Shown here: one piece after another, positions 18,336 to 62,597 of the stretch
Position numbering within the stretch: the stretch's first letter is position 1
Layout: each line of letters begins with the position of its first letter
Assembly (NCBI GenBank): GCA_951813565.1
Contig: OX638351.1
Coordinates: 1,728,001-1,792,000 of the forward strand
Direction of reading: 5' to 3'
From: an uncultured Poribacteria bacterium
GTDB taxonomy: Bacteria; Poribacteria; WGA-4E; WGA-3G
DNA: 64,000 nt
Notes under the pieces: generated by a model
Database searches by the model: none
Told to the model about the DNA's origin: nothing
What the model saw: the letters and a program-made list of their open reading frames with translations, nothing else
Program-made: the position numbers and the translations under genes

Positions 18336-18349
18336 ATTATAATATTGCT

Positions 18350-23426: not shown

Positions 23427-23551
23427 TGTATATAACCTCCTACATAATTTTGTAGTAATTCTTAGTATTTGATAATAATATGTAAATAATAATACATTTT
23501 AGGCTATTTTAGCAGAATGATAAAAAAAGTCAACATTTTTCTAAAAAAATT

Positions 23552-24959: not shown

Positions 24960-24994
24960 TTTTTATTTAACGTAGTAGGATTTTCTCCAGTTCG

Positions 24995-25995: not shown

Positions 25996-26122
25996 TGTTA
26001 TTTTATACCATAAAGATATTCTGAAATCTGGGTTAAGAATCTTTTGTGAAGAAAGTTTTTGTGTGTATTTAGTAGGACTTAGCAATGTGTTTTAGGTAGG
26101 TTATAGGAAATTATATTTTGAT

Positions 26123-27213
26123 CAGGACTTACGCAATAATCAAAAATTGTGTTATACTATTGGATTATGATTTCATTTACACTTCCTGAAAAGAAGCAAA
26201 ACTTACATTCCAACTATTGTCAATTTCTGATAGCAAGTTTCACTAATTTCACACAAACCTATTTCGCAGACCATACTGAGAAGTGGAGCCACGATCAACT
26301 CAATCGATACCTGAGGAACGAAAACATTCCTTCAAGCGAACTCTGGAAATCTGTAAAACCGGACATTGAGTTTGATGAAGATGGATACATTGCCTTTGAT
26401 GATGTCGTTCTCTCTAAGAAGTTTTCAAAACAGATAGAAGCTGTTTACCATCAATGGAGTGGTAGCGACAAAAAAGTTATTCGTGGCATCGGTATTGTCA
26501 CGTGTCTCTATGTCAACCCAAAAACTGGCGAGTATTGGGTCATTGATTATCGCATTTTTGACAAATCGCATGATGGTAAGACCAAAATAGACCATTTACT
26601 GGATATGTTGCATAATGCTGTCTTGAAAAAACAACTCCCGTTTCGGACCGTGTTGATGGATGCTTGGTATGTTTGTATGCAAGTGATGAAAGCGATTGAG
26701 AAACTTTCCAAGGTTTACTATGCGCCTCTGAAACGAAACCGACTTGTGAATGATACGGATGGTGTTGAACCACACCAGCATGTAGAAGATTTATCTTGGA
26801 CACAGACAGAAAAGCAACAGGGGAAACGGGTTCACATCAAAAACTTTCCGAAAGGGCATCAAGTGAAGTTGTTCCGGATTGTATCTGAAAACGGACGCAC
26901 GGAATATATTGTGACAAACGATTTATCTCAATCGGATGCGACTGCGACCAAAAACGAGTGTCGGGTTCGCTGGAAGATTGAGCAACTTCACCGTGAAATC
27001 AAACAGGTTACAGGTATTGATAAATGTCAGTGTCGTAAGTTGCGTGCCCAACGAAACCATATTGCCTGTTGTTTTCAGGTCTGGGTCTGTCTAATGCGTG
27101 CTGCACGGAAAGCCTCTCAAACGATTTACCGACTCAAAGATAGTTTATTGGATGATTACATGCGACATCAACTCTCTAATCCTTCAATAATTTTCAAAAC
27201 TGCGTAAGTCCTG
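26123..27213 (+). mobile_element. IS701-family insertion sequence
   Basis: TIR CAGGACTTACGCA...TGCGTAAGTCCTG; 5-bp duplication TTGAT. Confidence 0.92.
26167..27207 (+). CDS. IS701-family DDE transposase
   Basis: SHDQLNRYL, FDD, LMDAWY, RWKIEQLHRE.KQ.TG. Confidence 0.9.
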   Translation: MISFTLPEKKQNLHSNYCQFLIASFTNFTQTYFADHTEKWSHDQLNRYLRNENIPSSELWKSVKPDIEFDEDGYIAFDDVVLSKKFSKQIEAVYHQWSGSDKKVIRGIGIVTCLYVNPKTGEYWVIDYRIFDKSHDGKTKIDHLLDMLHNAVLKKQLPFRTVLMDAWYVCMQVMKAIEKLSKVYYAPLKRNRLVNDTDGVEPHQHVEDLSWTQTEKQQGKRVHIKNFPKGHQVKLFRIVSENGRTEYIVTNDLSQSDATATKNECRVRWKIEQLHREIKQVTGIDKCQCRKLRAQRNHIACCFQVWVCLMRAARKASQTIYRLKDSLLDDYMRHQLSNPSIIFKTA

Positions 27214-34936: not shown

Positions 34937-35407
34937 AACTCAAGTTGCTACCTACAAGATAATTGACATAAAAAACACCTTTTTAATCGGATAGTTCACT
35001 ATCAGCATAGATTTTGTAGCACGGGGAATGCCATTAAGGCATTCATACCGTTGATAGCACTTTCAGTTTGCGCCCTTATGACACAAACTAAATGAAGATT
35101 AATTTTTTAATTCGGTAATTTCTTGTTAGGTATATTCTGAATATGTCAAACGCTCTTCAGTCCCGACAAATGCCATACGGGGAATGTCAAAAGGCATTCA
35201 TACCGTTGATTTGGCGCATTTGGCGTTGATTTGGTAGGGACGGAATGTTTATAGCAAGAGGTGTTATCTCTTCTCTTAGTCCCGTAGGGACGATATATCC
35301 TTGCAGCACATGGCAACAAACATATCGTCCCTACGGGACTAAGGAAAATACCGAATTTATTTTTTAATCTTCATAAAGTTTGTGCTACATAGGTAGCAAC
35401 TTAGGTT
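34937..35407. mobile_element. AACTCAAGTTGCTAC-type MITE with a nested ATGAAGATTAA-type MITE (35092-35374), REPs and micro-elements
   Basis: TIR ...GTAGCAACTTAGGTT; 5-bp duplication ATTTT. Confidence 0.82.
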
Positions 35408-41248: not shown

Positions 41249-42799
41249 GGGTGTGTAAAGTTTTTGGCATGAATATCACGCTGCTTTTGTGTTTGTATAC
41301 CAATAATTATTCCATGCTTCATTTTTCAACAAACACCTCCACTTCAGCACAGCATTGATACCCGGTTTCTCCCATCTCATAGCAGCTTGTTTGCATCTTT
41401 GTCCGACAACATGTTTACACGCACTTTCAATCACACCACTGCCAATCTGATACCCTTTTTCTCTAAACGCTTTATACTGCATTCGCTTCGCGTGTTTTTC
41501 GAAATACCGCGCTTCTCTTTCTAAAATATCCGATACTTCCGGGGTCTGTGTGTCTAAGCCACGAATGCGTGCGGCTACTTCTGTAATGTTGCCATCATAA
41601 AGGATAGGTTCTGTCGTTTTTACCCAGTCTTGTATCGCCTCTGTTTCAGTCTCTCCGAACGCAACTTTAGCAACATCATATAGATGAGACTTCGCATGCA
41701 TATAATCCACAATCTCTACAGCATTGGGGAAGTATTCATCCGCTAAGTTCCATATCCACGCTGCACCATCACCAAGAAACACAATCTCTTGCGTATCTAT
41801 CGCTTCTTGGTAGATGCCACTATTGGTTGCTAACGCATATAACTCCTTACCAAAATGTGCTGCATCATTACGCGTTGCGACATAACGGATACTTGTCTCT
41901 CTCGCACTTGACACCGCATCAGAACCACATTGTGGATAATCTCTGTAAACACAACCAACTTTTGTCTCTTTCCACCCATCAGGGGAGTTGGTATGACACC
42001 CATCACAACTCACAGGCCATCGCTCATTTTCTGCGAGTTTTTGAGGTGCCACTTGTTCACAGACGCTCAAATCTTCTGACCATTCACTCACTTTGTGTTG
42101 GAGCGTCGTGTGGCTGACTTCTATACCTTGATGCGACAACTCCGATGCCGCTTCTCTATAGTCAAGAAGGGCAGACAGACGACACATCGTTTCAGCAACA
42201 CGACGCGTGTATTGACCCAATAACTTCTGTTTGACCTCCCACGGCGCGTGACGATGTCCTTGTTCACAACAATACACCCAACGATTTACGCTTGTTTTTC
42301 CACAAAGTGTTGTGAAATAACGCGCACGCATACGCAATGGACGACAAAGTTCTTGACACGCTGGACATTCAACTGGTTCACGCTCTTTCTTATTTGACTT
42401 TTTAGAAACACACATTTCTAAAAACTTTTGTTTAAAAGAACAAAATGCTTCGGAAACACGGACTTCAACATCACCTAAAGATAAACCCTCGTCAGAATTG
42501 ATGCCTACATAAAGATCGTTGATCTCTTTTACAAACTCGTTAAAATCTGCTTTGTAATCGTTGCCTTCACAAGGACTTAATGATATACTTGGCATTGGTA
42601 TCCTCTCCTATAATAGTGTGATAATTATTAGGGTAGGATACCATTTATACCAAATTAACGAGAATTGCATTGTTTTCATTGCCGATGGTAAGGGCGGGCA
42701 CAGAGACCCGCCCTTACGATTTAGGGTAATTTGGTATTATATACATTTTCTACAAGAACTCCATTCATTTCAATTTCATGCCAAAAACTTTACACACCC
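41249..42799 (-). mobile_element. ISKra4-like insertion sequence
   Basis: 25-bp TIR GGGTGTGTAAAGTTTTTGGCATGAA; no target duplication seen; a 91-bp MITE is nested at 42647-42737. Confidence 0.85.
41276..42595 (-). CDS. ISKra4-family (UPF0236-like) transposase
   Basis: SCDG, WKETKVG, LGDGAAWIWN, VDYMHA, IGSGVIESACK..V..R.K..MRW. Confidence 0.88.
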   Translation of the reverse strand: MPSISLSPCEGNDYKADFNEFVKEINDLYVGINSDEGLSLGDVEVRVSEAFCSFKQKFLEMCVSKKSNKKEREPVECPACQELCRPLRMRARYFTTLCGKTSVNRWVYCCEQGHRHAPWEVKQKLLGQYTRRVAETMCRLSALLDYREAASELSHQGIEVSHTTLQHKVSEWSEDLSVCEQVAPQKLAENERWPVSCDGCHTNSPDGWKETKVGCVYRDYPQCGSDAVSSARETSIRYVATRNDAAHFGKELYALATNSGIYQEAIDTQEIVFLGDGAAWIWNLADEYFPNAVEIVDYMHAKSHLYDVAKVAFGETETEAIQDWVKTTEPILYDGNITEVAARIRGLDTQTPEVSDILEREARYFEKHAKRMQYKAFREKGYQIGSGVIESACKHVVGQRCKQAAMRWEKPGINAVLKWRCLLKNEAWNNYWYTNTKAA

Positions 42800-43178
42800 C
42801 AGGGTTATTTAGTTTTCTATATTTCTGACGCATTTTATCACATGCGTTAGAAATATAGAAAACTAAATGAGGGGTGTGCATAAATAATTCCGATGTTAAA
42901 TATGCGCTTAAAGGTAGTCCGCACACGCCGTGGGTTTCCGTCCACAAGTTCAAAGAGGCGCAGCATGCCACACGGGGAATGCCATAAGGCATTCGGACCC
43001 GGTGAATGCCATAAGGCATTCATACCGTTGATTTCTTGATTTGGCGCATGCTGCGTTGATTTGGCAATGAATTGCGCGACTACAAACGCATTTCTATAAA
43101 TCAAGCGGCACCTGGCGTCTGTCCCTGTCTGTGTTGATGCGCCAATATTTATGCACACCCCTCAACTAAATAGCCCTG
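42800..43178. mobile_element. CAGGGTT-type MITE with a GAGGGGTGTGCATAAATA-type MITE (42869-43163) nested in its terminus
   Basis: Inner TIR GAGGGGTGTGCATAAATA; 8-bp duplication AACTAAAT. Confidence 0.85.
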
Positions 43179-43195
43179 CTGTATTGATAATCATC

Positions 43196-43224
43196 TTGAC
43201 ATCAGTCCAAAATAATAATATAAT
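43196..43224 (+). promoter_or_regulatory. Consensus sigma70 promoter
   Basis: TTGACA-17 bp-TATAAT upstream of the LamG gene. Confidence 0.75.
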
Positions 43225-43343
43225 TATGTTGATTATATGTGAAAGTTGCGGCAAATTGAAACGGTAACAAAAATTGTTGAGAATATAATTTTCCCTACAA
43301 AACTCTCCTACCACTTATAACTTATAAAAGGAGGCCTCATGTG

Positions 43344-44105
43344 ATGAGAGGTAAAATGTTTAGCAGAAATTTGACCTTGGCGTTTGTGCTTGTTACAGTA
43401 CTCACTTTTATGTGTGCCAATATGGCACAAGCTGCGCTTGTTACTGAAGGTTTGGTTAGCTATTGGAGCTTCAATAAGGCGAGTATACAAGAGGGAACAG
43501 TTAAGGACGTTTGGGGAGAAAATGACGGAAATATCAAAGGTGATGTCAAAATAGTAGACGGAAAATACGGCGAAGCGTTGGAATTTGATGGTGATGAAGA
43601 TTTGGTTTGGATGCCTGATACAGAGTCGCTTCAGATAGATGAAGCAGGTACCATAGAAATGTGGGTTAAAATCGCGGAAATACAAAAATATCAAGGTCTT
43701 TTCATTAAGGCAGGAGCCTGGGCAGGACCTGGATATGTTCTCAGATATAGTTCCCAGTACCAGTTTCAAGGTGGTTGGGAATGGGTTGATTTCCACCAAG
43801 ATGGTGAATTAATAAAAGGGCAATGGTCTCATGTAGCCATGGCCACCGACGGTGAGACAGCATTTCTATACCAAGATGGAAAACTAATAAAAACCCATGA
43901 AACGACTGTTACTGTAGACACTGAACCTCTTTTATTAGGTTTTACTGTAGACGTCTATTGGAAAGGGCTCATTGATGAAGTTCGCGTTTATGATCGAAAT
44001 CTAAATGAAAACGAAGTCAATCAGAACATGAATGCAGAAGGACTGGGTGTCGAAAGTTCTATTGAGAAACTACCTCTTACATGGGGAAAACTTAAGTCTG
44101 AGTAA
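43344..44105 (+). CDS. Secreted LamG (concanavalin A-like) domain protein
   Basis: Signal peptide; GLVSYWSF, GKYGEALEFDG, WSHVA, GLIDEVRVYDR; C-terminal KLPLTWGKLK. Confidence 0.9.
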   Translation: MRGKMFSRNLTLAFVLVTVLTFMCANMAQAALVTEGLVSYWSFNKASIQEGTVKDVWGENDGNIKGDVKIVDGKYGEALEFDGDEDLVWMPDTESLQIDEAGTIEMWVKIAEIQKYQGLFIKAGAWAGPGYVLRYSSQYQFQGGWEWVDFHQDGELIKGQWSHVAMATDGETAFLYQDGKLIKTHETTVTVDTEPLLLGFTVDVYWKGLIDEVRVYDRNLNENEVNQNMNAEGLGVESSIEKLPLTWGKLKSE

Positions 44106-44186
44106 CTTTGGCTTATCGGTACAACTGCTCAATCCATTGGTGCGGTGTTTGGCATCTACATTATCAATAATTTGTCGGGTTCTGTA

Positions 44187-44277
44187 ATACCAAATTAACG
44201 AAAATTACCTTGTTTTAGTGGTGATAGGAGCGGTTAGGAAACCGCTCCTACCGAGACGGATCCCGTTAATTTAGTAT
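44187..44277. mobile_element. 91-bp ATACCAAATTA-type MITE
   Basis: TIR ATACCAAATTAACG...CGTTAATTTAGTAT; same length and ends as 42647-42737. Confidence 0.7.
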
Positions 44278-44306
44278 AAGTCCTGATTTTTATAGAATTG
44301 AAAATT

Positions 44307-45431
44307 ATGAATGCAATAGAATTGACAAAAACTCTTATTGGGTATAACACAGTAAGTCCAAAAAGTAATGTTGAGGTAATGGATTTCCTTACCGGAACGT
44401 TGGAATCTGTTGGTTGCGAAGTGGAACGGGTTGAATATACCGATCCAGCAGGAGTGTTGAAGGTAAATCTGATTGGTCGTAAAGGGCAGAATACAGGTGA
44501 GCGCGGACTTGCACTGCTCGGACACATTGACACCGTGCCTGCGGTCGGTTGGTCAGAAAATCCATTTGAGGCACGGATTGTCGGCGACAAGATGTATGGG
44601 CGCGGCAGCTGCGATATGAAAGGGAGTGTCGCTTGCATGATTGCGGTTGCGTCTCGGTACGATGCTTCTAACTTACATGCCCCGCTCTATATTGTGATTA
44701 CTGCTGATGAAGAGGTAGGCTATTTGGGGGCGAGTGCTGTTGCAGAAAAATCAGAGATGTTTAAACAGCATGGATTTCCACAATACGGGGTTGTTGGTGA
44801 ACCAACCGAATTGAAGGCTGTTTACGCTCACAAAGGGGCAGTTAGGTTTTCCGTCACTGCACACGGACGCGCAGCACATAGCAGCACAGGTGAAGGTGAT
44901 AATGCGAACCTCAAACTCATTCCATTTCTTTCAGAAATGCGCGAAATCCATCAGGAATTGACAACTGATAAGCAATACTTCAATTCTGAATTTACCCCAC
45001 CTTTTACAGATTGGAACATTACAATCAGTGATGGAGAATGTACCGCTAACATCACCGCGCCGCGAAGTGTTTGTAATATTAACTATCGTCCGATGCCCGG
45101 TGATGATCCACAAGTATGGATAGATCGGGGACGCAGTGCTGCGGAAAAATATGGGTTGGAGTTTGACCTATTCATCAATGCCGGTCCTGTACGTACATCA
45201 CCCGATGCTGACATCATCCAAGCAGCACTTGAAATTACTGGAGATACGAAACCGCATACCGTCGCATACAGCACAGATGCAGCGGTCTTTTCTAAGCACA
45301 TGGAAACAGTTATTATAGGTCCAGGAAGTATTCTACAGGCACATACGGTTGATGAATGGATGGCGATGGACCAGTTTGATAAAGGTATCAGTATCTTCAG
45401 CCAGTTTGTGGATCGGTTCTGCGTTTCGTAG
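44307..45431 (+). CDS. argE: Acetylornithine deacetylase (M20 family)
   Basis: GHIDTVP, GRGSCDMKG, ADEEVG, GEPT, AHKG, GPG...QAHTVDE. Confidence 0.82.
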   Translation: MNAIELTKTLIGYNTVSPKSNVEVMDFLTGTLESVGCEVERVEYTDPAGVLKVNLIGRKGQNTGERGLALLGHIDTVPAVGWSENPFEARIVGDKMYGRGSCDMKGSVACMIAVASRYDASNLHAPLYIVITADEEVGYLGASAVAEKSEMFKQHGFPQYGVVGEPTELKAVYAHKGAVRFSVTAHGRAAHSSTGEGDNANLKLIPFLSEMREIHQELTTDKQYFNSEFTPPFTDWNITISDGECTANITAPRSVCNINYRPMPGDDPQVWIDRGRSAAEKYGLEFDLFINAGPVRTSPDADIIQAALEITGDTKPHTVAYSTDAAVFSKHMETVIIGPGSILQAHTVDEWMAMDQFDKGISIFSQFVDRFCVS

Positions 45432-45465
45432 AAACTCCGCAGATAACATTGCGGTATTCAGTCTT

Positions 45466-45792
45466 GTAGGTCGGGTAAAGCGAAGCGAAACCATAAGTGT
45501 CAACTTAAGGATTTATTTCAGGTTGGACGCTATTAAATACAACCTACAAACCTCCCCTTATTGTAGGGCGGGGCACAGAGACCCCGCCCTACAAGGTGTG
45601 ACGGGATTTTCTCGCTAAATTGACGCCTATGGGTAGAGCGAAAGCGAAACCCGACAGATATTCTTGTTTGTAGTCGCGCAATTCATTGCCAAATCAACGC
45701 TGAATACGCTTTTGGTATTCAGCGGGTATGAATCATGGCGAATGCCAAAAGCGCATTCGTCTTTAGGCATTCCCCGTGTGGTATTCGCCATG
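45466..45792. repeat. REP, CCATAAG-type MITE and nested micro-element cluster
   Basis: CCATAAGTGTCAACTTA...TAAATTGACGCCTATGG between duplicated REP halves; CAAATCAACG units from 45690. Confidence 0.75.
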
Positions 45793-45819
45793 ACTTGTCG
45801 CCTCGGACATTTAAACGAG

Positions 45820-46263
45820 TTATGTCCGTTCACGGAGTTCCTTAAAAAAGACAGCGTCCGGTTTGACCCATTCCGCCTCACCGTCTGCCCACACTTCGCG
45901 TTTCCAGATAGGAACAATCTGTTTAAGGCGATCCATGGCATATTGACACGCTTCAAACCCGTCTTTGCGATGCGGAGAAGCAACCGCTACAGCCACACTC
46001 ACTTCACCGATTTCCAGTTTTCCCACACGATGAATCATAGCGACGCGATGGATACCCCACTTTTCCGAAATTTCCGCTGCAATTTCCGCCATCTTCTTTT
46101 CAGCCATCGGCGGGTATGCTTCGTATTCAAGGTGTTTTGTTGGTCTACCATCTGTATTATTCCGAACAGTGCCAAAAAATAGAACCACCGCGCCAGCATC
46201 CGGTGTCTCCACAGCCTCCCGAACCTCTGCACCTGTAATGACTTCAGCGGTAATCTTAAACAT
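45820..46263 (-). CDS. moaE: Molybdopterin synthase catalytic subunit
   Basis: GAVVLFFGTVR, LEYEAY..MA, HRVG.L, HRKDGF, PIWKRE. Confidence 0.95.
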   Translation of the reverse strand: MFKITAEVITGAEVREAVETPDAGAVVLFFGTVRNNTDGRPTKHLEYEAYPPMAEKKMAEIAAEISEKWGIHRVAMIHRVGKLEIGEVSVAVAVASPHRKDGFEACQYAMDRLKQIVPIWKREVWADGEAEWVKPDAVFFKELRERT

Positions 46264-46510
46264 CACTCCCTCCTGTCACTGGCGGAATCAATGCTACTTC
46301 ATCGCCTTCAGCAAGTTCGGTGTTCTCAGTAGCGTATTCCCAATTGACAGACATTTGCATCACTTCATAAAATTCCGCAATTTCGGGCCATTCTTCCTCA
46401 AGTCGTTTTAAAATTGTTTGGACGGTGGCGCCTTCAGGTAGCTGCATCTCCTCTTCGGATCTATCTAACATTTCGTGGCATACGGCAAAGTATTTGACTG
46501 TAACCTTCAT
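46256..46510 (-). CDS. moaD: Molybdopterin synthase sulfur carrier, with GG followed by SDV
   Basis: VKYFA...SVNWEY...GDEVALIPPVTGG-SDV. Confidence 0.88.
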   Translation of the reverse strand: MKVTVKYFAVCHEMLDRSEEEMQLPEGATVQTILKRLEEEWPEIAEFYEVMQMSVNWEYATENTELAEGDEVALIPPVTGGSDV

Positions 46511-46622
46511 TAGGGCTCCTTCGCTATTCTATTCTTAGGTCAAATATAGTTTCTAAAAGTATATCATAACAGCGGAGTGGAGTCAATGGATGCGTGAAGT
46601 TCTCACGGAGCCATTCAATTCT

Positions 46623-46781
46623 TCAGCGTTCTGTCCTCATTATTGAGTCTGCGTTCTCTGCTCTTTGGTCTGCATTTATCCAAGCACTTAAGCTTGGGCC
46701 TGCATAGGATATGTTATTGATAGAAAAGAAAGATAACACACTAACAATAAGCACGATAAAAACTAAACTTCTTGTCAACAT
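46623..46781 (-). CDS. 52-aa signal-peptide-bearing small protein or truncated secreted protein (not in the ORF track)
   Basis: SD AAGGAGG; MLTRSLVFIVLIVSVLSFFSINNISYAGPSLSAWINADQRAENADSIMRTER. Confidence 0.6.
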   Translation of the reverse strand: MLTRSLVFIVLIVSVLSFFSINNISYAGPSLSAWINADQRAENADSIMRTER

Positions 46782-46796
46782 TTGAAATACCTCCTT

Positions 46797-47513
46797 TTAT
46801 TCGGGAACATCAATGAAATCCGGAAAATAGTCTGAAAGGAACATACGTGCCCTACCGTAGCGAGTCATACCACCATAGGGTGTAATTTCACCCGCATCAG
46901 TATGTGTCCACGTTAGTCGCCACAAATCCATCTGACGTGCAGTTACAGGGTCAGCAACAGGATATTGAGCATTAATAGCACGCTTTTGCGATAGATACTC
47001 CAGCGCAACTTTTTGGTATATAGGAGTATCTACCATGCCAATACTTACATAATAGTTCAGAAGATACTGATTTCTGGCATACTCTTGTGCTTCTGTGTCA
47101 TCTGTCGGGAATGGCGATATATGCTCTGCACTCCAGTGTCCGCGTTCTTCTGACTGCAAACGGAGTGCTTTCACGGGGTTTGTTTCAAGCAGTTCCTTGT
47201 GGTATGTCAACGGACCGGTATACGTTACCGCAGGTTCCGCGCTGGGTTCGTGCGGCGTATCTTGCCACACATCAGGTGCGTCAATCGGCACTTCGTGAAA
47301 ATGGTCATCATGTGGCATCCACTTTTTGCCCGGTTCGGCAGGTGGTAGGTTATTTTCTGCAAGGAGGTTACGCTTTTGTTCAAGCAGTTTCGCGTCTTGT
47401 GCAAGCTGTTCTTTGAGCTGCTGCACCTCTGACCACTGGTAATAAATAAAACCACCAGCAGCAATCAGGATTATAATGAGGGCTGCGATGCCCGAATACA
47501 TTTTGCGATTCAT
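46797..47513 (-). CDS. Membrane-anchored protein with coiled coil and HxxHxH motif
   Basis: N-terminal TM; WMPHDDHFHEVP. Confidence 0.8.
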   Translation of the reverse strand: MNRKMYSGIAALIIILIAAGGFIYYQWSEVQQLKEQLAQDAKLLEQKRNLLAENNLPPAEPGKKWMPHDDHFHEVPIDAPDVWQDTPHEPSAEPAVTYTGPLTYHKELLETNPVKALRLQSEERGHWSAEHISPFPTDDTEAQEYARNQYLLNYYVSIGMVDTPIYQKVALEYLSQKRAINAQYPVADPVTARQMDLWRLTWTHTDAGEITPYGGMTRYGRARMFLSDYFPDFIDVPE

Positions 47514-47771
47514 CTAACGATCCTCCTGTTCAAGCTTGTTGTTATTCCTGCTATGCGTTGTTTCCAGTGTGCAGGGCTGTCTCGGACTTGGACAGATCAA
47601 GCCTGGTTTCTGTACCTCTTTTCTCGATGTACATTCGCGTTTGAATTGTTCTTCGCAAGCGGGCGTATCTATCTGCGTAGCATCAATTGTGCCAAACAGC
47701 AATAAACCGCTTCCGATGATGAATGCGAAAGTAAGAATGGAGAGAAGAAGTACTTTGTAGTCTCGTCTCAT
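47514..47771 (-). CDS. Small membrane-anchored Cys-containing protein
   Basis: SD GAGGAGG; TM helix; abuts the next gene. Confidence 0.62.
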   Translation of the reverse strand: MRRDYKVLLLSILTFAFIIGSGLLLFGTIDATQIDTPACEEQFKRECTSRKEVQKPGLICPSPRQPCTLETTHSRNNNKLEQEDR

Positions 47772-47918
47772 CTTGTGCCTCCTCTTTATATAGAGTAGGT
47801 TAATTGTTTTGACAGACTACAGAAATAGGCGGGGAATGCCTAAATAGCATTCATACCGTTGATTAGGTATCTATAAGTTTTAACTATCCCTGTAGAGGCC
47901 GCTGGTCTCTAAAGTACA

Positions 47919-47947
47919 TTGACACTTCAGAAGGTCTATGCTAAAAT
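47919..47947 (+). promoter_or_regulatory. Sigma70 promoter for a candidate sRNA
   Basis: TTGACA-17 bp-TAAAAT with extended -10 TG; no plus-strand gene nearby. Confidence 0.7.
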
Positions 47948-47953
47948 AGACAC

Positions 47954-48063
47954 CAGCGCTGTCAGACTTTTCCTGGCAGTGCTATGGCATCGGCAGTGGT
48001 GCTAACACTGTCGGTGCATTTGAAAAGCACCTCCGACGTAATCCACGCAGGGCGGATTTTTTT
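47954..48063 (+). ncRNA. Candidate cis-antisense sRNA of about 110 nt
   Basis: Promoter; two stems whose mismatches are all G-U on the plus strand; terminal hairpin plus T7. Confidence 0.6.
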
Positions 48064-48077
48064 AACGTCTATAAGGT

Positions 48078-48106
48078 ATTATAAAACTTTTTGCATTTTT
48101 TGTCAA
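48078..48106 (-). promoter_or_regulatory. Consensus sigma70 promoter for the 47771-46623 operon
   Basis: TTGACA-17 bp-TATAAT on the minus strand. Confidence 0.78.
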
Positions 48107-48405
48107 CAACTTTTTTGAATTTTATCAAAAAATATAATTTATTATCAATAACCGAATGGACTTTAAGCAGAACCATTCAGTTTTCCAATAATTTCTACCT
48201 TTTACTTAAACCTCTTCCTGTTGGCATTCCCCGTATGGCATTCGCCATGATTTGTAGCGTTGATTTCTTGATTTGGCGCATTTAGCGTTGATTCACTGGT
48301 CGTGACCCTGTCTTTAATGTTCAGAAAAACGCGAAAACTGAATGGCTATGGAAGTTCTCAAAAGGACTTTGACTTTTTTGATTAAATATGTGATACTTAA
48401 ATAGA

Positions 48406-48872
48406 CTAAACTTTGGACAATTTTTTCAAACGTGAGTCGATATAAGGAATTGGTTCACTAACTTTTTCACCAAATCAAGGAACAACGGACAAAACAGAAC
48501 CCTCTTTGCTCCAGCGGAGCAATATGTTTATAGCCACATTATGTGTCGATATATCCGCTCCAGCGGAGCGGTCCGTGATTTCTAACACATAGCACTCCGC
48601 TGGAGTGCAAGAATATGTGCATACCGTTTTCTATAGACATAGCACTCCGCTGGAGTGCGGAACATATCCGTCATCAAATATGCGATAGCGCGATATTATT
48701 GTGTCGGATTTCTCTAACCTATATGGCGAACTCACGTTATAGTAAATTATGTAAATAAGTTCACATATATTCTGTAGGAGCGATCTCCGAATCGCGACGA
48801 AACCACTAATAGTCGGGAATCGGAGTTCCCTCGGACAGCTCAGATGTCCAGTTAATTGTAGACTCCGCTATA
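48406..48872. mobile_element. Partial CTATAGTTTGGAC-type MITE plus TATAGT-type MITE with REPs
   Basis: Homology to 19241 and 33111 up to about 48660; TATAGT...GCTATA element at 48738-48872. Confidence 0.7.
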
Positions 48873-49101
48873 ATATAGAAACTGCGTGTAAGTTGGTTAG
48901 GGTTGGGAAAACATGGGGTTGAGATTTAAATGGGTAGCCATCTGAGATAGTTGATGTCATTTGCATCATTTCTGCTTGGAAAGCAACATCTTATACCAAT
49001 TCTAAAATACAATGTCCCATTTAACATACTGTAATTTAATGGAATATCAACAGAAAAAAGCATCATAAGTGTATTGGCTGGATTGGACATTATATTCAAA
49101 T

Positions 49102-49461
49102 ATGGACAGTATCATCATAAAAGGTATCCGATTTCACGGCCACCACGGTGTTCCAAAAGCGGAACGGCAGGTTGGTGGACATTACGAAATTGATGCGACA
49201 TTGCGTTGCTCGCTTGTGAACGCTTGCAGGACCGACGCGCTTGAGAACACAATTGATTATGCGAGCGTTGTTGATCTCATTGTTGATATTGGCACACAAC
49301 AGTCGTTTCAACTCATTGAGGCACTTGCAGAGACAATAGCATCAGAGATTTTAACACAATTCCCGATAGATACCGTGCAGCTTACCGTCAAAAAACTTCA
49401 CCCACCGATAGAACAACCGATTGCCTACTTTGCCGTTGAAATCTGTCGTCCAAAGGAGTAA
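49102..49461 (+). CDS. folB: Dihydroneopterin aldolase
   Basis: GHHGV..AER, TIDY, LIEALAE, VKK..PP. Confidence 0.93.
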   Translation: MDSIIIKGIRFHGHHGVPKAERQVGGHYEIDATLRCSLVNACRTDALENTIDYASVVDLIVDIGTQQSFQLIEALAETIASEILTQFPIDTVQLTVKKLHPPIEQPIAYFAVEICRPKE

Positions 49462-49463
49462 GA

Positions 49464-50669
49464 ATGCGATTTATACAGCGGTTGTGCATCATCACATCAT
49501 TTCTATGTCTAATAAGCACCATCGCACAAGCAGATGGGACGAAAACCCAACTTTTTCCTGACCTGTCACCTGGACTCAATGTTTACCGTTACGATTGGGA
49601 TGTTGAAACATGTGTCCTCTATGTTGCTGAGATGACACGAAATAATCCGACACTACACTTTGAGGTTGCACTCGGGAATTCGCAGGTTCTTGGAAAAGAG
49701 ACTGTGCGTTCTATGGCGAAACGCCGCACACAACGGGGTGATCGACGCGTCGTTGTAGCAGTTAACGGAGGTTTTGGTGTCCTCGGTGATATGCGAGGTT
49801 ACGGTGGCGTTTTGGAAAACATACACATCCAAGATGGTGAACTCATCACACAACCAACGGATACTGAAGCATGCTTCGGTGTGACTGAATCCGGTGAATT
49901 CCTAAGCACTCCCGTACAAATGAAAGCGAGCGTCCAAATAGGGACACATACGCTACTGATCGGATGTATAAATCAGCGCAGACTCGATGGATGTAAGGTG
50001 ACACTTTACACACCACGCCTCGGTGAATCAACACACACTAACCGCCGCAGAGGTAAAGAAGTAATACTCAGTGGACTCCCACTCCCTTTGACACCAAACT
50101 ACGCGCGCCCCTATCAAGTAGAAAAGATTTCAAACAATGGAAATAGTCCTATTTCCAAAGATAGTGCTGTTCTCTGGATTAGTTCACAGATAAAAGATGC
50201 TGGGGTCTCACAGTTCAATCCTGGGGCAACTGGTAAACTTACAGTCTCTCTTTCGCCACCCGAGTGGAATCAGGTTCGCCATGCGATTGGAGGACGACTC
50301 CGACTTCTCAAAAATGGGAAAATAAATCAGGAACTTGTGGATACGCATTTAAAAAATAAAAAGAAACATGTTCCCGGAAAACGGGATCAGTTCCTAAACC
50401 TGAGCCATGAACCACGAACAGCACTTGGCTACAATGCCGACACCCTGTTTTTAGTTGTCGCTGACGGACGGCAACCCAAATATAGCACAGGTTTGACTCT
50501 CTACGAACTCGCCAGCATTCTTATTGAACTCGGTGCAACTGAAGCAATCAATCTTGATGGTGGATCCTCAAGTACTTTTGTTGTTAACGATGAGGTTATC
50601 AACAAGCCTTCCGGACAGCAGGAGCGGGAGGTTCTGAACGCAGTGTTTATTACAACGGATGTGGATTAA
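49464..50669 (+). CDS. Secreted phosphodiester glycosidase (NAGPA) family protein
   Basis: AVNGGF, EPRTALG, ADGRQ, AINLDGGSSS. Confidence 0.88.
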   Translation: MRFIQRLCIITSFLCLISTIAQADGTKTQLFPDLSPGLNVYRYDWDVETCVLYVAEMTRNNPTLHFEVALGNSQVLGKETVRSMAKRRTQRGDRRVVVAVNGGFGVLGDMRGYGGVLENIHIQDGELITQPTDTEACFGVTESGEFLSTPVQMKASVQIGTHTLLIGCINQRRLDGCKVTLYTPRLGESTHTNRRRGKEVILSGLPLPLTPNYARPYQVEKISNNGNSPISKDSAVLWISSQIKDAGVSQFNPGATGKLTVSLSPPEWNQVRHAIGGRLRLLKNGKINQELVDTHLKNKKKHVPGKRDQFLNLSHEPRTALGYNADTLFLVVADGRQPKYSTGLTLYELASILIELGATEAINLDGGSSSTFVVNDEVINKPSGQQEREVLNAVFITTDVD

Positions 50670-50692
50670 TCTTAATTTTTTGGAGGTTCAAT

Positions 50693-51736
50693 GTGAAGGT
50701 TCATTTTTCAGTTGTATGCATGCTGTTTCTTACGTTTTTGGTTTCAGACAGTCAGCAAGCAGAAGAAGTTCCCAAGTTATTAAAGGCAGTACCGCTATCG
50801 CAAACCGCGATTCAACTTCAATTTGACGGAAAATTACAAGCGGAGGCTGCTGAAGACTCCTCAGTCTATCAGATTACGCCAAATATAAAAATTGAATTCG
50901 CGTGGCTTGATGATCGTCTGAATCGTGTACTGCTAATTACTTCTCCGTTAGAGATAGGGAAAACTTATCGACTCACACTACAAAATACAAAAACAGAAAT
51001 AGATGTAACGCTCCCTGCCGAAAACGAAATCACTTTCGGCACAGGCGATTTGGTCACATTCTCTGGAGGCTTGCAAGATACGAGCTTAATTGTTAATAAA
51101 GATCGCAAAACACGAAACAACAACGTTGGTGCTGAAACGACCCTCTTATGTAATCCGACAGGAACCGTTTTCTTCGTCGCTTTTGACCTGTTTGAGGCGT
51201 TTGAAGATATGGGTATCCGAGAACCGAAACAGGTATTAGAGGCATCAATAAGCCTACATGCACAGCAATCGGATGCAGATACTGCTCAAACTGTTATTCT
51301 TCGCCGCGTTTTGCTTCCGTGGCGTGAAGGTAGAGGCACTTCAGATCGCGCCGAAGAGAACGAACTTACTTATAACAGCGCATTACATCGCAACCTGCCA
51401 TGGAATAAATCGCCCGCACAAGCCATGTTAGCAGGGATAGATGGTGATAATGAGAGTGATTACAACGGTTCTGAGGATGTCGCACACCGAATTGACGGCG
51501 CTTTTAAGATTCAAGAAGCAGGCAAACGTTATACTTTTAAAGGTGATTTAATCACCGATGCAGTCCGTTTTTGGGTGAAAAATCCTGATTACAACTACGG
51601 TTATCTTTTTGCCATGCGAGATGGTAACGCTCCCTTCATTTTCTCTTCAAAAGAGACAGTAGATGAAAACTTGCGTCCAGTGTTAACAATTCGCTACCAA
51701 ACACAATCGGACGTAGAAACTGCACCGCTTCGTTAG
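50693..51736 (+). CDS. Secreted protein with Ig-like and DNRLRE-like domains
   Basis: Signal peptide; RVLLPWREG, WVKNPDYNYG, FSSKE..LRPVLTI.Y. Confidence 0.7.
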   Translation: MKVHFSVVCMLFLTFLVSDSQQAEEVPKLLKAVPLSQTAIQLQFDGKLQAEAAEDSSVYQITPNIKIEFAWLDDRLNRVLLITSPLEIGKTYRLTLQNTKTEIDVTLPAENEITFGTGDLVTFSGGLQDTSLIVNKDRKTRNNNVGAETTLLCNPTGTVFFVAFDLFEAFEDMGIREPKQVLEASISLHAQQSDADTAQTVILRRVLLPWREGRGTSDRAEENELTYNSALHRNLPWNKSPAQAMLAGIDGDNESDYNGSEDVAHRIDGAFKIQEAGKRYTFKGDLITDAVRFWVKNPDYNYGYLFAMRDGNAPFIFSSKETVDENLRPVLTIRYQTQSDVETAPLR

Positions 51737-51784
51737 TCTATGTTGAGTTTATCTTTCTGTTGAAGCGAGTTGTGCACACAACAT

Positions 51785-53074
51785 TCACATATACTTCCGC
51801 AAATGCGCTAATGTCTGTTCCACAGCACCGAGATTTTCCTCAATTAATTGTTTCCCAATATGTCCAGTCTCTGTTAGTTTTTCTTTATCATTTAGCCATT
51901 CCTTGAGAACATCTGCCATCTGTTGAGGTGTATGTGCTATTTTCGCCGCGCCTCTTTCCAGTAATAAGGACGCTTCATAGGAATTCTGTATAGTAGGTCC
52001 AAAAAGAACCGGTTTCGCCATCGCAGCAGGTTCCATCACATTGTGAATGCTACCGTGAAAACTTCCGCCTACAAAAGCAATGTCCGCTAACTGATACAGT
52101 TTTGCTAAAATCCCCACCTTATCAACGACAAGAACATCTATGTCTTCCAAATTCGCATCACTGTTAAGTTCTGAGAAACAACGGTGTACTAATTTTCGCT
52201 TATTTAGTTCTGCTTGAATTTCGGCTATCCGTTCCGATGTCGGTTCGTGCGGCACTAAAATTAAGTTTGGGTTATGCTCAGGTGTGTCTTTGCAAAGAAT
52301 CTGGGACGCTTCCAATAGGACCTTCTCATCATCCGAGTATGTGCTACCAGCAATGAGGATAGGGCGATTTAAAGTCGCTTGCCCAGGAAAAAATTCTGTA
52401 TTAGATTCAACCGAAATTGCTCGCTTGTAAACCTGTTCATAGCGGGTATCGCCAGTGACAACAACCTGATGTTTTGAAGAACAGAGTTGTTGAAACCGAG
52501 TTGCATCCGCTTCAGAAATGGCACAATGTAACTTAATATGCCGATGCACACTTCTAAAAAAAGACTTTGCGAATCTGCCGAGACGTTTCGATCCAGCATG
52601 CAGTGTTCCAGCGATTACAACGATAGGAATTTTATATTTGGATGCTTTCCAAACGAGGTTGGGCCAAATATCGTATCTGGAAAAAATCAGACACGTAGGT
52701 TTGATGAGATTTATTAAACGTTCTGCATTGCGAGGTGTATCAAAGGGGAAAAAAGCGGCTGCATCAACATAAGGATAGGCATCAACATTTGGCGCAACCG
52801 AAGGGGAGAAGAAAGTTAAAACAATTCGGACATCTATGTAGATCGCTTCAATCAGCGGTTTAGCTTGTTCAAATTCTCCAACAGAAGTGAAATGGAACCA
52901 TGCCGTTTTTTCTAAATTTCGGGCATCGTTGAGTTGACGCTCCAACTTCTCAAATACCTGTCTCCGTCCAATGATACCCTCACGTATTTTGCGATTGCAA
53001 CACGCAGCCAAGTGAAAACCGATAAACATAACGGGAAGTACGAACGTGTTGTAGACAAATCGCCAAAACATCAT
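51785..53074 (-). CDS. waaA: 3-deoxy-D-manno-octulosonic acid transferase
   Basis: WFHFTSVGE, GDTRY, AGST, VPHEP, FVGGSF..HNVMEPA. Confidence 0.9.
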   Translation of the reverse strand: MMFWRFVYNTFVLPVMFIGFHLAACCNRKIREGIIGRRQVFEKLERQLNDARNLEKTAWFHFTSVGEFEQAKPLIEAIYIDVRIVLTFFSPSVAPNVDAYPYVDAAAFFPFDTPRNAERLINLIKPTCLIFSRYDIWPNLVWKASKYKIPIVVIAGTLHAGSKRLGRFAKSFFRSVHRHIKLHCAISEADATRFQQLCSSKHQVVVTGDTRYEQVYKRAISVESNTEFFPGQATLNRPILIAGSTYSDDEKVLLEASQILCKDTPEHNPNLILVPHEPTSERIAEIQAELNKRKLVHRCFSELNSDANLEDIDVLVVDKVGILAKLYQLADIAFVGGSFHGSIHNVMEPAAMAKPVLFGPTIQNSYEASLLLERGAAKIAHTPQQMADVLKEWLNDKEKLTETGHIGKQLIEENLGAVEQTLAHLRKYM

Positions 53075-53182
53075 GCTTTGTTACGAGAAGTAGACTGCAA
53101 GTTTCTAACGCAGTGAAATCCACAGAAGCCTGCCGAAGCGTTATATGCTCCGGCTTAGTCGCTTCCACATAGAAGGGATAGA

Positions 53183-53512
53183 TTAAAGCGCATCCAAGAT
53201 TTTTTTCTTGAGCGCATCTTTAGGCATTGCGCCGACAATCTGATCCGCGACCTCTCCATCTTTAAAGACAAGCAGCGTCGGAATGCTTCGGACACTATAT
53301 TTCATTGCCGTTTGACGGTTGTCGTCCACGTTGACCTTTCCAACTTTGAAAGTGTCCGCATTTTCAGCGGCAAGTTCCTCCAAAATTGGTGCAATCATTT
53401 TGCACGGACCGCACCACTCTGCCCAAAAGTCAACAACGACAGGTGTATCTGATGTAAGCACCATTCCTTCAAACGTATCGTCTGTGATTTCAAAAGTATT
53501 TTCAGCCATCAT
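53183..53512 (-). CDS. trxA: Thioredoxin
   Basis: DFWAEWCGPCK, SIPTL. Confidence 0.95.
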   Translation of the reverse strand: MMAENTFEITDDTFEGMVLTSDTPVVVDFWAEWCGPCKMIAPILEELAAENADTFKVGKVNVDDNRQTAMKYSVRSIPTLLVFKDGEVADQIVGAMPKDALKKKILDAL

Positions 53513-53824
53513 AACTCCTTTTTACTTGAATAATTGAAAATGATTTAGGTATATTCGCTACCACGGTTCCCAACTGTTGTGGTGATTTTTCAGAATGTTA
53601 TTAACGCATCTGCAGCCTTTTGATTTGGCAAGGTCGATAAACAAAACTTTCTTTCAGACGAATCAATATGTTAAATATGTTACCCTATTCCAAAATTAAT
53701 TTCCACATATAATTAACCACTTTCAATTTTAGGTAGGTGCAGCTCGTTTCAATCTAAACTTTTGATACACATAACATACCCATAGATGAAAACCGTCCAT
53801 CAAATTTTCTCTGCTAAGTAACAA

Positions 53825-53853
53825 TTGACAAACACATCTCTAAATTGTATAAT
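53825..53853 (+). promoter_or_regulatory. Consensus sigma70 promoter of the FRG/TPR locus
   Basis: TTGACA-17 bp-TATAAT with extended -10 TG. Confidence 0.75.
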
Positions 53854-54359
53854 CTGATTAAGAACTGGTTGAAAGAATAAAATCAAAACACAACACCAAT
53901 GAGCAACACACCAATTGAGATATTAAGTTTAGCAGAGTACATTAATCGAATAGATGAAATAACCGATCCTGGTGTAAACTATCTATATCGCGGACAAGAA
54001 AACGCAGCATGGCGAGTGACTAGTAGTGCTTACCGTCGCTTGTTAACAGGTCAAACCGATACTGAGACAGGTTCATTGGAAATACAACCTGATAATGAGA
54101 CAAGTTCATTGGAAATACAACCTGATACTGAGACTGAGACAGATTTGTTGCCATATCTGTTTGTAGGTTATCTTAAACAGATTATTGATGAGATTCAACT
54201 AAGGTATCCGTCTACATATAAGGATCTGTTTGCATTAGAGTGCATGGCACATTTGCAACATAATAAAGTCGCTACAGGACTCATTGATTTTACATTCAGT
54301 CCGCTTGTGGCACTTTGGTTTGCTTGTGATAATCAAGAGAACGCAGACGGTAAAGTTTT

Positions 54360-55767
54360 CGCAATAAGTAGTTTTGGACTTTCAAAAAGCCCTTAAGCGT
54401 TATGGAAATTTATACTTAATAGGGTATGAGAATTCGGAAAAGCACTAAACGGCGAAGACTAATTTCTAACTCTAATCTGCGAGAACTTCTGCCCCTCCAC
54501 CTCACATCGGTATAAAAGTTGAGCGCGCTTGATAGATACTTTGCAACGGCAGACAATTCTTCTAATCGTTTTGCCGTTGTGATATGAGTGTGGTCCAGCT
54601 TGTCAAGACCTTATTCTCTAAGTTCTTCTGCCATCGTTGAGTGAGTCTTCATCTCATACTCTCATTGACAAACTTATCAAAAATGCTCTCAATGTTCCTA
54701 TAGTTGTATTTATAGCACGCCTCTGCGACATATAGGGGCGTGTATTCAGTCCAATAGTGGTGATGACTTCCATACCAAGCACGTTTGAGAAGTGACCAGA
54801 AGCCTTCAATCGTATTGGTATGGACATCACCGTCAACAAATTGTTCTTGATGATCAATGATATGGTGCTTCATCTCTTTACCGAGTGTGAGATAAGCCTT
54901 ATACTCATCAGTCATCAACTGCGATTTATCTACTTTAACAACTTCGCGAATAAAATTTAAGATAGTCCGTCCCGTCAAATCTTTTGCGAGTCTTGCCACA
55001 ACTTTCCCACCGCGTTCAATCGCTCCGATGATAGCATCTTTATCAGTGCCACGCCCACGCTTAGCAGGATCCCTGTCCTCTTTTTTGTTCGCTTTGCGAG
55101 GTTTACCCCCGACATAAGTTTCGTCAGCCTCTATGATACCTTGTAAGAGGATATTATCTTTAGCCATTTCAGCACGGATGCATGTTCCCATACGCCACGC
55201 AGTCTTTTGATTCAAGTCCAAATCTCTTGCCAACTGATGACTTGAAAGACTCTTTTTAGCATTCGTCATCAACGAGATAGCCAAAAACCACTTCTGAAGT
55301 GCTATCTTTGTCCCGTGAAACACCGTGCCACAAGTAACCTTGAAAGTAGCAGTGCAATCGTGGCATTGCCAGCGCCCGATGCGTCCCAATTCCGTTTCTG
55401 TTCGTCTTGCAACGTTTGGGCAATCACAATGTGGACACTTCGGTTTACCCTTCCACCGAATACTCTCTAAATGTTCAATACAACTCTCTTGATCAGGGAA
55501 TCGTTCCATCACTTTCAACAAATCCATCAGAAAACTCCTTTTTAGGAGTTGCTTTTTCTGACAGGTTTCTGATACAATAATTAGATAAGACAGAATGCCA
55601 GAAAAGCAACTCGCTTTTTTGTGTTCAATTAGGGGGTTAGCAGCCCTCTAATTTCTTATCTAAATTGTATCATATTTTCACAATTAAAACAAGCGAAAAA
55701 TGTAGTCTACACAAGGATTTAGAGCGATTTTTAAAATTTTGTTGAAAGTCCAAAACTACTTATTGCG
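54360..55767 (-). mobile_element. IS1595-family insertion sequence, copy 2 (1408 bp)
   Basis: Same TIRs as copy 1; 8-bp duplication AAAGTTTT. Confidence 0.95.
54649..55527 (-). CDS. IS1595-family transposase
   Basis: Differs from copy 1 at five amino-acid positions. Confidence 0.93.
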   Translation of the reverse strand: MDLLKVMERFPDQESCIEHLESIRWKGKPKCPHCDCPNVARRTETELGRIGRWQCHDCTATFKVTCGTVFHGTKIALQKWFLAISLMTNAKKSLSSHQLARDLDLNQKTAWRMGTCIRAEMAKDNILLQGIIEADETYVGGKPRKANKKEDRDPAKRGRGTDKDAIIGAIERGGKVVARLAKDLTGRTILNFIREVVKVDKSQLMTDEYKAYLTLGKEMKHHIIDHQEQFVDGDVHTNTIEGFWSLLKRAWYGSHHHYWTEYTPLYVAEACYKYNYRNIESIFDKFVNESMR

Positions 55768-62383: not shown

Positions 62384-62597
62384 GTAGGTTGGGTAGAGTG
62401 GAGCGAAACCCATAGCTGTCAATTTAGGGATATATTTCTTGTGGGAGTGAATCAATGCCAAAAGCGCATGCTGCGTTGATTTGGATATAACGGTTTGAGT
62501 CTCAAAAATCGGGCTTTCAAGGTTTCCCTCCCACAAGAGATAAGCCAGCATTTTTTCTTAAGTTGACAGTTATGGGTAGAGCGGAGCGAAACCCAAC
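62384..62597. mobile_element. CCATAG-type MITE in a duplicated REP
   Basis: CCATAGCTGTCAATTTA...TTAAGTTGACAGTTATGG flanked by GGGTAGAG(T/C)GGAGCGAAACCC. Confidence 0.8.

Follow-up and report, generated by a model that had tools for sequence, protein, structure and literature searches.

How a piece of DNA of only 34-35 nt can settle inside other repeats, and what moves it there, is the question raised by a 64,000-nt stretch of the genome of an uncultured Poribacteria bacterium (contig OX638351.1, positions 1,728,001 to 1,792,000), referred to here as the window. Short hairpin units recur between its genes, and close to position 43000 several of them are nested in one another within a repetitive extragenic palindrome (REP), which itself lies in a miniature inverted-repeat transposable element (MITE). 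A preliminary description of the window had regarded these units as a non-autonomous mobile family, far smaller than a MITE, which inserts without target duplication and nests recursively, and had suggested HUH/Y1 or IS110-type chemistry for its movement. In the present analysis the family was followed through the host genome, that of a sponge symbiont (single contig, 5.43 Mb, 43% G+C), and through related genomes. The units were found to insert with exact ends, mostly between C and G of other hairpin repeats, and no tested enzyme family tracks them.

The octamer AATCAACG is present 19 times in the window, compared with 3.48 copies expected, and 19 copies were reached in none of 100 shuffles. 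Seventeen of them form the head of a hairpin unit or of a composite, the other two (21794 and 35570) being chance matches in coding DNA; the sequence lies where it had first been described, and the recurring unit was confirmed. Genome-wide, 1270 AATCAACG heads were counted where base composition predicts about 202, and no 10-mer is more frequent than CCAAATCAAC (562 copies). Each unit consists of an unpaired tag of ten bases (two variable bases followed by AATCAACG), an 8-bp hairpin with a loop of 7-8 nt, and a final C, the tag reading (C/T)(A/G)AATCAACG and not GTAG. The octamer is followed by C in 58%, by G in 24% and by T in 8% of heads, and 416 of the 1270 heads run directly into a perfect hairpin of 6 bp or more, mainly with the arms CAGCATGC (112), CCAAATGC (73) and CAAATGC (61). 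Covariation of stems between copies, likewise described before, was corroborated by 90.9% of paired arm cells in 51 distinct validated 34-mers, compared with 74% on average and 80% at most in 500 shuffles, and the pairs 12:32, 13:31 and 14:30 each alternate between two Watson-Crick types. As single-stranded DNA, clean units fold with -9.1 to -10.5 kcal/mol (z about -2.9), two weaker-armed units no better than shuffles, and Rfam 15 at gathering score gave no match in the whole window. The 34-35-nt units coexist with 27-nt headless modules and with a second micro-family of 28-nt CAT-headed hairpins, which start with CATGGCGAAT or CATGTAGAAT (e.g., window 11140-11215 and 45725-45790) and take the place of about four loop bases of other hairpins, a net gain of 24 nt. 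All modules have a common stem top, ATGC/GCAT or GAATGCC/GGCATTC.

Evidence for insertion came from excision in silico, in which 24-47 nt were cut at each head and the resulting 22-mer junction was sought elsewhere in the genome, with the same heads' positions shifted by 80-300 nt as controls. A junction was restored for 347 of the 1270 heads and for 43 of 1270 shifted controls, and the excised lengths peaked at 34 (149 heads) and 35 nt (158 heads), as expected of a non-autonomous family far below the size of a MITE and inserting without target duplication. The genome scan with iterative excision that the preliminary description had recommended, here with fixed ends, peeled 263, 64 and eight units in three rounds and each time restored existing junctions; the 335 units represent 85 distinct sequences, 331 units ending in C. 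The 5' end common to nearly all solutions lies two bases before AATCAACG and the 3' end comprises the 3' arm and one C; the latter is exact, the two 5'-most bases are variable. The units have neither terminal inverted repeats nor target-site duplications, by which MITEs of DDE transposons are recognised, whereas their 297-bp carrier has both. In the window itself, strict excision validated four units (6119-6153, 8714-8747, 8748-8781 and 35179-35213), the rest being without an exact 22-mer empty site. All four empty sites named earlier are present at their positions, three of them as multi-copy repeats, namely the REP 25-mer at 8842 (97 genome copies), GTAGGTCGGGT at 45466 (25 copies) and AGTCCCGTAGGGACG at 35278 (19 copies); the fourth, at 16331, is weak, as CATGTTGGGTT is an 11-mer with nine copies, beyond which the flanks diverge.

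The targets follow a short rule. Among the 263 first-round events, 163 took place at C^G (the caret marks the point of insertion), 68 at C^CAAATC, i.e., before another unit, and 31 at G^G. Left flanks such as CTGC, GCGC, TTGC, CATC, CTAC, TGTC, GGGC and AATC have the last C alone in common, which is found in 231 of the 263 events, and one identical 34-mer occurs in 18 copies with 13 different 8+8 flank contexts. Insertion points were located in the loop or at the foot of other hairpin repeats, namely in the loop of a further unit (GC^GT), in the GTAG-tagged REP (TTGC^GCCTC), in GTCCC-TAC^GGGAC and GGGAATC^GGAGTTCCC, and directly before GGGTTTTCAACCC. The GTAG REP, whose AATTGCGCGACTAC is among the commonest 14-mers (238 copies), was found empty in 125 copies genome-wide, filled in one orientation in 71 and in the other in none. 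Only two of the 335 units are located in open reading frames (ORFs) of at least 200 amino acids (aa), though such ORFs make up 76% of the genome. Relative to the neighbouring gene 99 units have the same and 120 the opposite direction, i.e., no bias, and the 43 genes with units on both sides are about the number expected by chance.

Units also enter each other, 29 of the 335 strictly validated ones being situated inside another validated unit. The recursive nesting described before thereby holds for two clean levels, whereas deeper levels use other module types. A 70-nt block with a double head, CAAATCAAGAAATCAACG, recurs; the double head occurs in 119 genome copies, and cutting 40-199 nt at it restored an existing junction in 56 of these, compared with five of 119 controls, with lengths clustering at 68-72, 95, 105 and 119 nt. 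In addition, 83 tandem hairpin joints of the form TTCACCGGGT(A/C)(T/C)GAATG were counted in the genome.

How such nests are built is recorded most directly by the MITE that carries the 104-nt nest (Table 1). Copies of 270-370 bp with a short flanking direct repeat are found at 34 genome sites; 32 copies were aligned, all of which carry the REP, and 34 could be anchored on both sides of the insert site, 31 of them filled and 29 holding at least the outer and the inner unit. Because it carries the GTAG REP, the MITE ferries the micro-units around the genome. At this one site the insert measures 0 nt in three copies, 34 in two, 69 in 12, 76 in one, 77 in one, 104 in one (that of the window), 105 in two, 129 in four, 153 in seven and 164 in one. 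The 34-nt state is the outer unit, uninterrupted in its two copies; at 69 nt a 35-nt unit is added at GC^GT of the outer loop, at 77 nt the eight bases GAAATCAA double the inner head, and at 104 nt a 27-nt headless hairpin is added at AAC^GG. The states of 129 and 153 nt each show a net gain of 24 nt by a 28-nt CAT-headed hairpin substituting about four bases, that of 164 nt a further 35-nt unit in opposite orientation, and that of 76 nt is the 104-nt state minus 28 nt between the two heads. Because of this ladder the nest reads as 34 + 35 + 8 + 27 nt, which replaces the three units of 34, 36 and 34 nt assumed previously. Cutting the inner 70 nt as two clean units fails by one base, and excision of 34-36 nt leaves forms with one or two genome copies.

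Among the genera sampled, the family is confined to one. The head pattern was detected in all 40 genomes of a single Poribacteria genus, with 9-409 copies compared with 0-2 for the control pattern, and 89 genomes of other genera in the phylum yielded 0-17 copies, behind which, in the places listed, the sequence is unrelated. When an 18-mer of the unit was sought in a public genome collection, 78 of the 80 matches listed belonged to Candidatus Poribacteria; two 18-mer scans of viral contigs produced six loci, none with a hairpin behind the head, which were regarded as chance matches. Within the genus the subfamilies differ: the CAGCATGC stem has 121 copies in the host genome and 1-15 in four of 24 congeners, and another species shows runs of a CCGAATCC stem at 34-nt spacing. 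Orthologous loci are not always filled. The REP of 45690 is uninterrupted in one relative (G052) and contains an insert of 58 nt in another (G006) and of 110 nt in the host genome (G000); the two inserts differ, yet begin at the REP's same point, and five further species have a spacer of 17-23 bp at this site. Another REP holds one 35-nt unit in G006 and a deeper nest in the host genome. Near 6117, 11100 and 17953 the spacers measure, each in one relative, 11, 18 and about 0 bp and are occupied by different repeats in others, G012 and G002 with units of their own, and the 463-bp spacer holding the 17953 unit is wholly absent from G017. These comparisons stem from a window whose synteny with three relatives is short (43181-54203), which limits single-site comparison. 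Four whole spacers (45430-45818, 5851-6342, 11090-11404 and 17885-18348) measure 11-23 bp in some species, whereas in others unrelated repeats fill 350-550 bp, and since whole spacers differ between species, the repeat blocks turn over fast.

A particular accumulation was observed in G023, where 120 kb of contig C1 (4355000-4474999) contain 113 AATCAACG heads, about one per kb. This stretch looks like a flexible island in which units pile up and is rich in genes for WD40-repeat proteins, Type ISP and other restriction-modification systems and further defence functions, AbiEii-like ATPases and a phage-type integrase; a comparison of its 61 ORFs with Pfam revealed no HUH or other obvious mover candidate.

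The balance of the evidence tips slightly towards movement by a single-strand, site-specific nick-and-join reaction, performed by an enzyme outside the recognisable Y1, IS110 and reverse transcriptase (RT) genes. We infer such a reaction, with a single-stranded intermediate, by copying or by cutting, and with it the enzyme, from ends that are exact, insertion that duplicates nothing, an orientation that is fixed in an asymmetric target, a compensated hairpin and the small size; a duplex circle of 34 bp is not feasible. The unit would be a non-coding micro-element mobilised in trans by an enzyme that reads the tag by its sequence and the hairpin by its shape. This enzyme would nick and rejoin one strand at C^G, usually in the loop or foot of another hairpin repeat, so that 34-35 nt are set in and target bases are neither duplicated nor lost. 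With each insertion a further C^G would arise at the 3' junction and another would be supplied by the unit's own loop (GC^GT), and because new sites would arise at both places, head-to-tail piles and nests would follow. Heads in direct repeat would recombine and delete the intervening DNA, by which nests would also decay. Finally, the TG and CG heads may represent old variant heads kept in one REPIN-like family (REPIN, REP doublet forming a hairpin), whose members would have gained new hairpins by tandem insertion followed by head-to-head deletion, an account of mutated heads suggested by the 76-nt state.

Several observations weigh against this mechanism. Nine of the 29 nested units lie on the strand opposite to their host unit, and only 56 distinct 8+8 contexts stand behind the 263 first-round events. 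Head orientation is near even in all 20 chromosome bins, without a replichore-linked bias of the IS608 kind; the cumulative GC skew shows no clear origin or terminus, and the result speaks only for the absence of a strong strand bias. The bases TG or CG before AATCAACG are found only after ...GGAG and similar flanks, which is unexpected for a simple element with fixed ends. Copy numbers overstate events, as the outer and the inner unit of the present nest ride in a 34-copy MITE, and REPIN-like blocks with units inside are gained or lost as whole blocks; much of the high copy number is hitch-hiking in MITEs and such blocks, and independent events are better gauged by the 56 contexts, the ladder steps and the identical units in many flanks. 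Between species, most differences likewise concern whole repeat blocks and not single units. Polymorphism at the level of reads was not visible in four public runs, whose contigs over 42660-54500 stop at the repeats (at 43135, 45534 and 45784); none bridges a nest, and the listed joints stem from paralogous copies. No enzyme was found, and hence the central step is deduced.

RAYTs (REP-associated tyrosine transposases) are thought to move REPs and REPINs, and it could be supposed that a Y1 HUH transposase of the genome, a RAYT or a TnpA of the IS200/IS605 type, binds the hairpin, cuts adjacent single-stranded DNA and rejoins it at a short target. Insertion without duplication, the combination of tag and hairpin and the strand-specific entry into the REP suit HUH chemistry, ten Y1 matches (PF01797) were detected in the host genome (five IS605-type TnpA and five RAYT-like, two of the latter with a TAG stop), the profile matched in 36 of the 40 genus genomes, and single units lie about 70-100 nt upstream of the RAYT-like genes at 242089 and 5070893. 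We nevertheless regard this as unlikely. In 400-nt flanks, none of the ten Y1 genes has the unit as an end or as paired flanks, which speaks against the HUH/Y1 chemistry proposed initially; the hairpins beside the RAYT-like genes are GTAG REPs of their own (GTAGGAGCGAGCTCC...) or of the GCACC..GGTGC form. Homologues of the RAYT-like clade, rejected as the mover, are present in 25 of the 40 genus genomes, whereas units are present in all 40, and they show no regular unit flanking: nine of 30 homologue loci are without the 7-mer AATCAAC and none has units abutting both ends. No PF01797 match was found in G023, G001, G010 and G024, which have 29 to 119 heads (G023, one contig, 119; G001, four contigs, 99), whereas the most Y1-rich genome, G009, combines 21 matches with 11 heads. 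As these four assemblies are 73-97% complete, absence is not proof, and the units may be fossils in some lineages. Moreover, the target appears to be only C^G and not a tetranucleotide, and the replichore bias is lacking. Three of the RAYT-like genes lie at 242089-242412, 3549623-3549949 and 5070893-5071213, one with a TAG stop; two of these are flanked by GTAGGAGCGAGCTCC-type REP arrays, with seven copies behind the gene at 242089.

Other transposase families were likewise sought. The IS110 profile (PF01548) found no match in the host genome, its control matching in six of 14 genomes, so that IS110-type chemistry, also suggested before, lacks its enzyme there; the Y2/IS91 profile (PF04986) found no match, but its control matched nowhere either, so that this result carries no information. 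The insertion sequence (IS) elements of the window, belonging to the ISKra4, IS1595 and IS701 families, were dismissed as movers: they are all DDE types and on that account irrelevant to an insert without duplication.

A dedicated enzyme would be dispensable if a polymerase stalled at a hairpin switched template to another hairpin repeat, copied it and returned via one or two shared bases at C^G, the units thus being multiplied by replication or repair. The terminal C common to donor and target (231 of 263 left flanks and 331 of 335 units), the common stem top of all modules, the net +24 steps, which substitute a few bases and are not clean insertions, and the failure of any enzyme family to track the units would all fit. 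We consider it quite unlikely all the same, for one base of homology would be very little, the 5' end is exact and always includes the whole unpaired ten-base tag, for which a structure-driven switch gives no cause, identical units occur in many unrelated contexts, and the family ends at a genus boundary, though hairpin repeats and polymerases are universal.

Passive spread, i.e., a few old insertions carried along in MITEs and REPIN-like blocks and patterned by recombination and deletion, agrees with the REP in every aligned MITE copy and with the prevalence of filled copies, with unit-bearing blocks that are wholly present or absent between species, and with a visible head-to-head deletion (76 = 104 minus 28 nt). 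As a full explanation it is very improbable: three of the 34 MITE copies are empty and two contain the outer unit only, the states differ by defined modules at exact points, 56 distinct insertion contexts exist and one 34-mer has 13 different flanks, and a precise loss of 35 nt at a single shared base would be unlike recombination.

An RNA route, in which a transcript of the unit is reverse-transcribed into a nick at C^G, can hardly be credited, for in spite of two RT genes in the host genome and of an exact 3' end with two variable 5'-most bases, as in target-primed reverse transcription, RT genes (PF00078) were found in only 18 of the 40 genus genomes and not in the other 22, including G049 with its 409 heads and G017, a single contig with 222, the group-II-like RT occurs sporadically, the units have no orientation bias relative to genes, and the variable 5' bases track target context and are not random. 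In G023 and G001 neither Y1 nor RT was found. The two RT genes of the host are a group-II-intron-like RT and a Drt4-type RT; the former was rejected as a mover, being present in seven of 39 genus genomes compared with 17 of 44 in the unit-free sister genus. It is encoded at genome positions 3990667-3992061 (-) and reaches 275 bits, under the cut-off of 300, with about 130 unmatched residues between two RT stretches.

The components of the nest and the remaining units of the window are compiled in Table 1.

Table 1. The nest, its carrier and further hairpin units, in window coordinates (kcal/mol and z values refer to single-stranded DNA folds).
Feature	Position	Strand	Details
104-nt nest	42960-43063	-	Closing stem encloses two inner hairpins; fold -26.4 kcal/mol (z -5.0); 0/200 shuffles match
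Outer 34-nt unit, 5' part	43044-43063	-	Head CAAATCAACG 43054-43063, arm CAGCATGC 43046-43053, first loop bases GC
Outer 34-nt unit, 3' part	42960-42973	-	Loop remainder GTGTG, arm GCATGCTG, final C
Inner 35-nt unit, head CAAATCAA	43036-43043	-	Ninth base C at 43027; hairpin at 42974-42999
Extra 8-nt head GAAATCAA	43028-43035	-	Creates double head CAAATCAAGAAATCAACG; 77-nt state in one copy
27-nt headless hairpin module GGTATGAATGCCTTATGGCATTCACCG	43000-43026	-	At AAC^GG between head and hairpin of inner unit; from 77- vs 104-nt states
Inner 35-nt unit, hairpin GGTCCGAATGCC-TTAT-GGCATTCCCC	42974-42999	-	From sequence, ladder and fold
Target GTAG-tagged REP (GTAGTCGCGCAATTCATTGC on minus strand)	43064-43083	-	Other half GCCTC (minus) at 42955-42959
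MITE carrying REP and nest	42868-43164	.	297 bp; 19-nt terminal inverted repeats TGAGGGGTGTGCATAAATA at 42868-42886 and 43146-43164; flanking direct repeat ACTAAA
35-nt TG-headed unit	6119-6153	+	Between CTTGTGGGAG and GGGTTTTCAACCCC; excision-validated; empty junction 26 times
Two 34-nt units head to tail	8714-8781	+	8714-8747 and 8748-8781, then headless hairpins to ~8830
34-nt unit	17953-17986	+	At GTAGGTC^GGGT; fold -9.1 kcal/mol, z -2.9
34-nt TG-headed unit	20575-20608	+	Directly before hairpin GGGTGCGGTTAGGAAACCGCACC
36-nt unit	20813-20848	-	Named empty site is an 11-mer only
Two-level nest	35165-35233	-	34-nt outer unit (CCAAATGC arms), 35-nt unit 35179-35213 in its loop, inside hairpin GTCCC-TAC^GGGAC
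110-nt insert in another copy of the GTAG REP	45690-45799	+	First 34 nt are a clean unit
35-nt unit, degenerate head CTAATCAACG	47832-47866	-	
Composite nest	48223-48295	-	TG head, double head, CAT-headed inner hairpin
Unit head to head with decayed copy	62448-62483	-	Inside CTTGTGGGAG
TG-headed unit, further hairpin in loop	63735-63792	-	Beside CTCCCACAAG

Among the neighbouring elements, an ISKra4-family IS (window 41249-42649) adjoins the nest and encodes a transposase of 439 aa (242 bits); 12 other full-length genome copies with 90-99.6% identity are among the matches listed. An IS1595-family element (23543-24960) has at least 13 near-identical copies (about 99%) and an IS701-family element (26122-27213) three full-length copies (98-100%, two identical), and both look recently active. 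At 46797-47771 two ORFs of 238 and 85 aa without Pfam or NCBIfam match are situated in a 2.5-kb insert missing from the closest relative; they represent a multi-copy family, several copies of which are found at 75-88% in the host genome and its relatives.

With 34-35 nt, the units rank among the smallest DNAs for which good evidence of independent movement exists. This evidence is unusually direct, comprising eight successive fill states at one MITE-family site in a single genome and identical units in many contexts. They join the small dispersed repeats of Nostoc and the CGTC-tagged REPs among the few tagged hairpin repeats without a known mover; the usual enzyme suspects were examined in 40 genomes belonging to one genus, and not one of them fits. 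Because the genus boundary is sharp, the question of the mover is testable by a comparison of gene content across it. The units remodel intergenic DNA, which bears on assembly, strain typing and the regulation of neighbouring genes in sponge symbionts. A more far-reaching version can be put forward tentatively, as a proposition more doubtful than not: a host factor hijacked by the tag, or a kind of enzyme new to transposition (not Y1 HUH, DEDD or RT), might move 27-35-nt modules single-stranded into C^G of other hairpins. The modules would then constitute a separate class of mobile DNA that follows an insertion grammar of its own (tagged, headless, CAT-headed), the smallest with a surviving natural stepwise record (0-34-69-77-104-129-153-164).

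Literature searches on palindromic repeats in Poribacteria yielded only papers on CRISPR or on unrelated subjects, and no description of the present family was found by them. One counterpart is formed by REPs and REPINs with RAYT (TnpA-REP) transposases (Bertels and Rainey 2011, PMC3116915). Like the units, they occur in hundreds of copies as short hairpins outside genes, the unpaired tag standing at the 5' foot, and for both a movement as single strands without target duplication is supposed. However, the tag is CAAATCAACG and not the GTAG of REPs, the single hairpin is the inserting unit here, as 34-35 nt excise cleanly, whereas the REPIN is an inverted doublet, and no RAYT is flanked by units in the manner of a REPtron (ten Y1 genes and 30 homologous loci). 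GTAG REPs are, in this genome, separate families that serve as landing sites. The CGTC-tagged palindromic repeats, including the Rickettsia palindromic elements (RPEs), are likewise tagged hairpins for which a dedicated transposase is apparently lacking, as Di Nocera et al. (2013, PMC3733652) state for CGTC-tagged REPs. RPEs and some REPs are found in genes, whereas the present units almost never are (2/335), and CGTC is a minority reading in their tag.

IS200/IS605 elements carry two subterminal hairpins that differ from each other, enter on the 3' side of a defined tetra- or pentanucleotide and show a replication-linked orientation. They and their hairpin-ended miniatures share with the units the lack of duplication, the strand specificity and hairpins as recognition handles; the units differ by one hairpin, an apparent C^G target and the lack of such an orientation bias. 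The small dispersed repeats (SDR1-8) of Nostoc punctiforme and relatives, which Elhai et al. reportedly described in 2008, are said to measure 21-27 nt. The likeness to them, noted in the preliminary description, appears apt as far as their reported features go: they, too, are said to be tiny and non-coding, to lie within other repeats and their own copies, and to have a compensated hairpin, no known enzyme and a lineage-restricted distribution. By the same account they are shorter and cyanobacterial, whereas the units, at 34-35 nt, have a fixed ten-base tag, belong to one Poribacteria genus and insert at C^G. The family differs in defining features from REP/REPIN-RAYT systems, IS200/IS605 miniatures, MITEs and IS110 elements, but in its behaviour it is like a tagged REP and like a Nostoc SDR.

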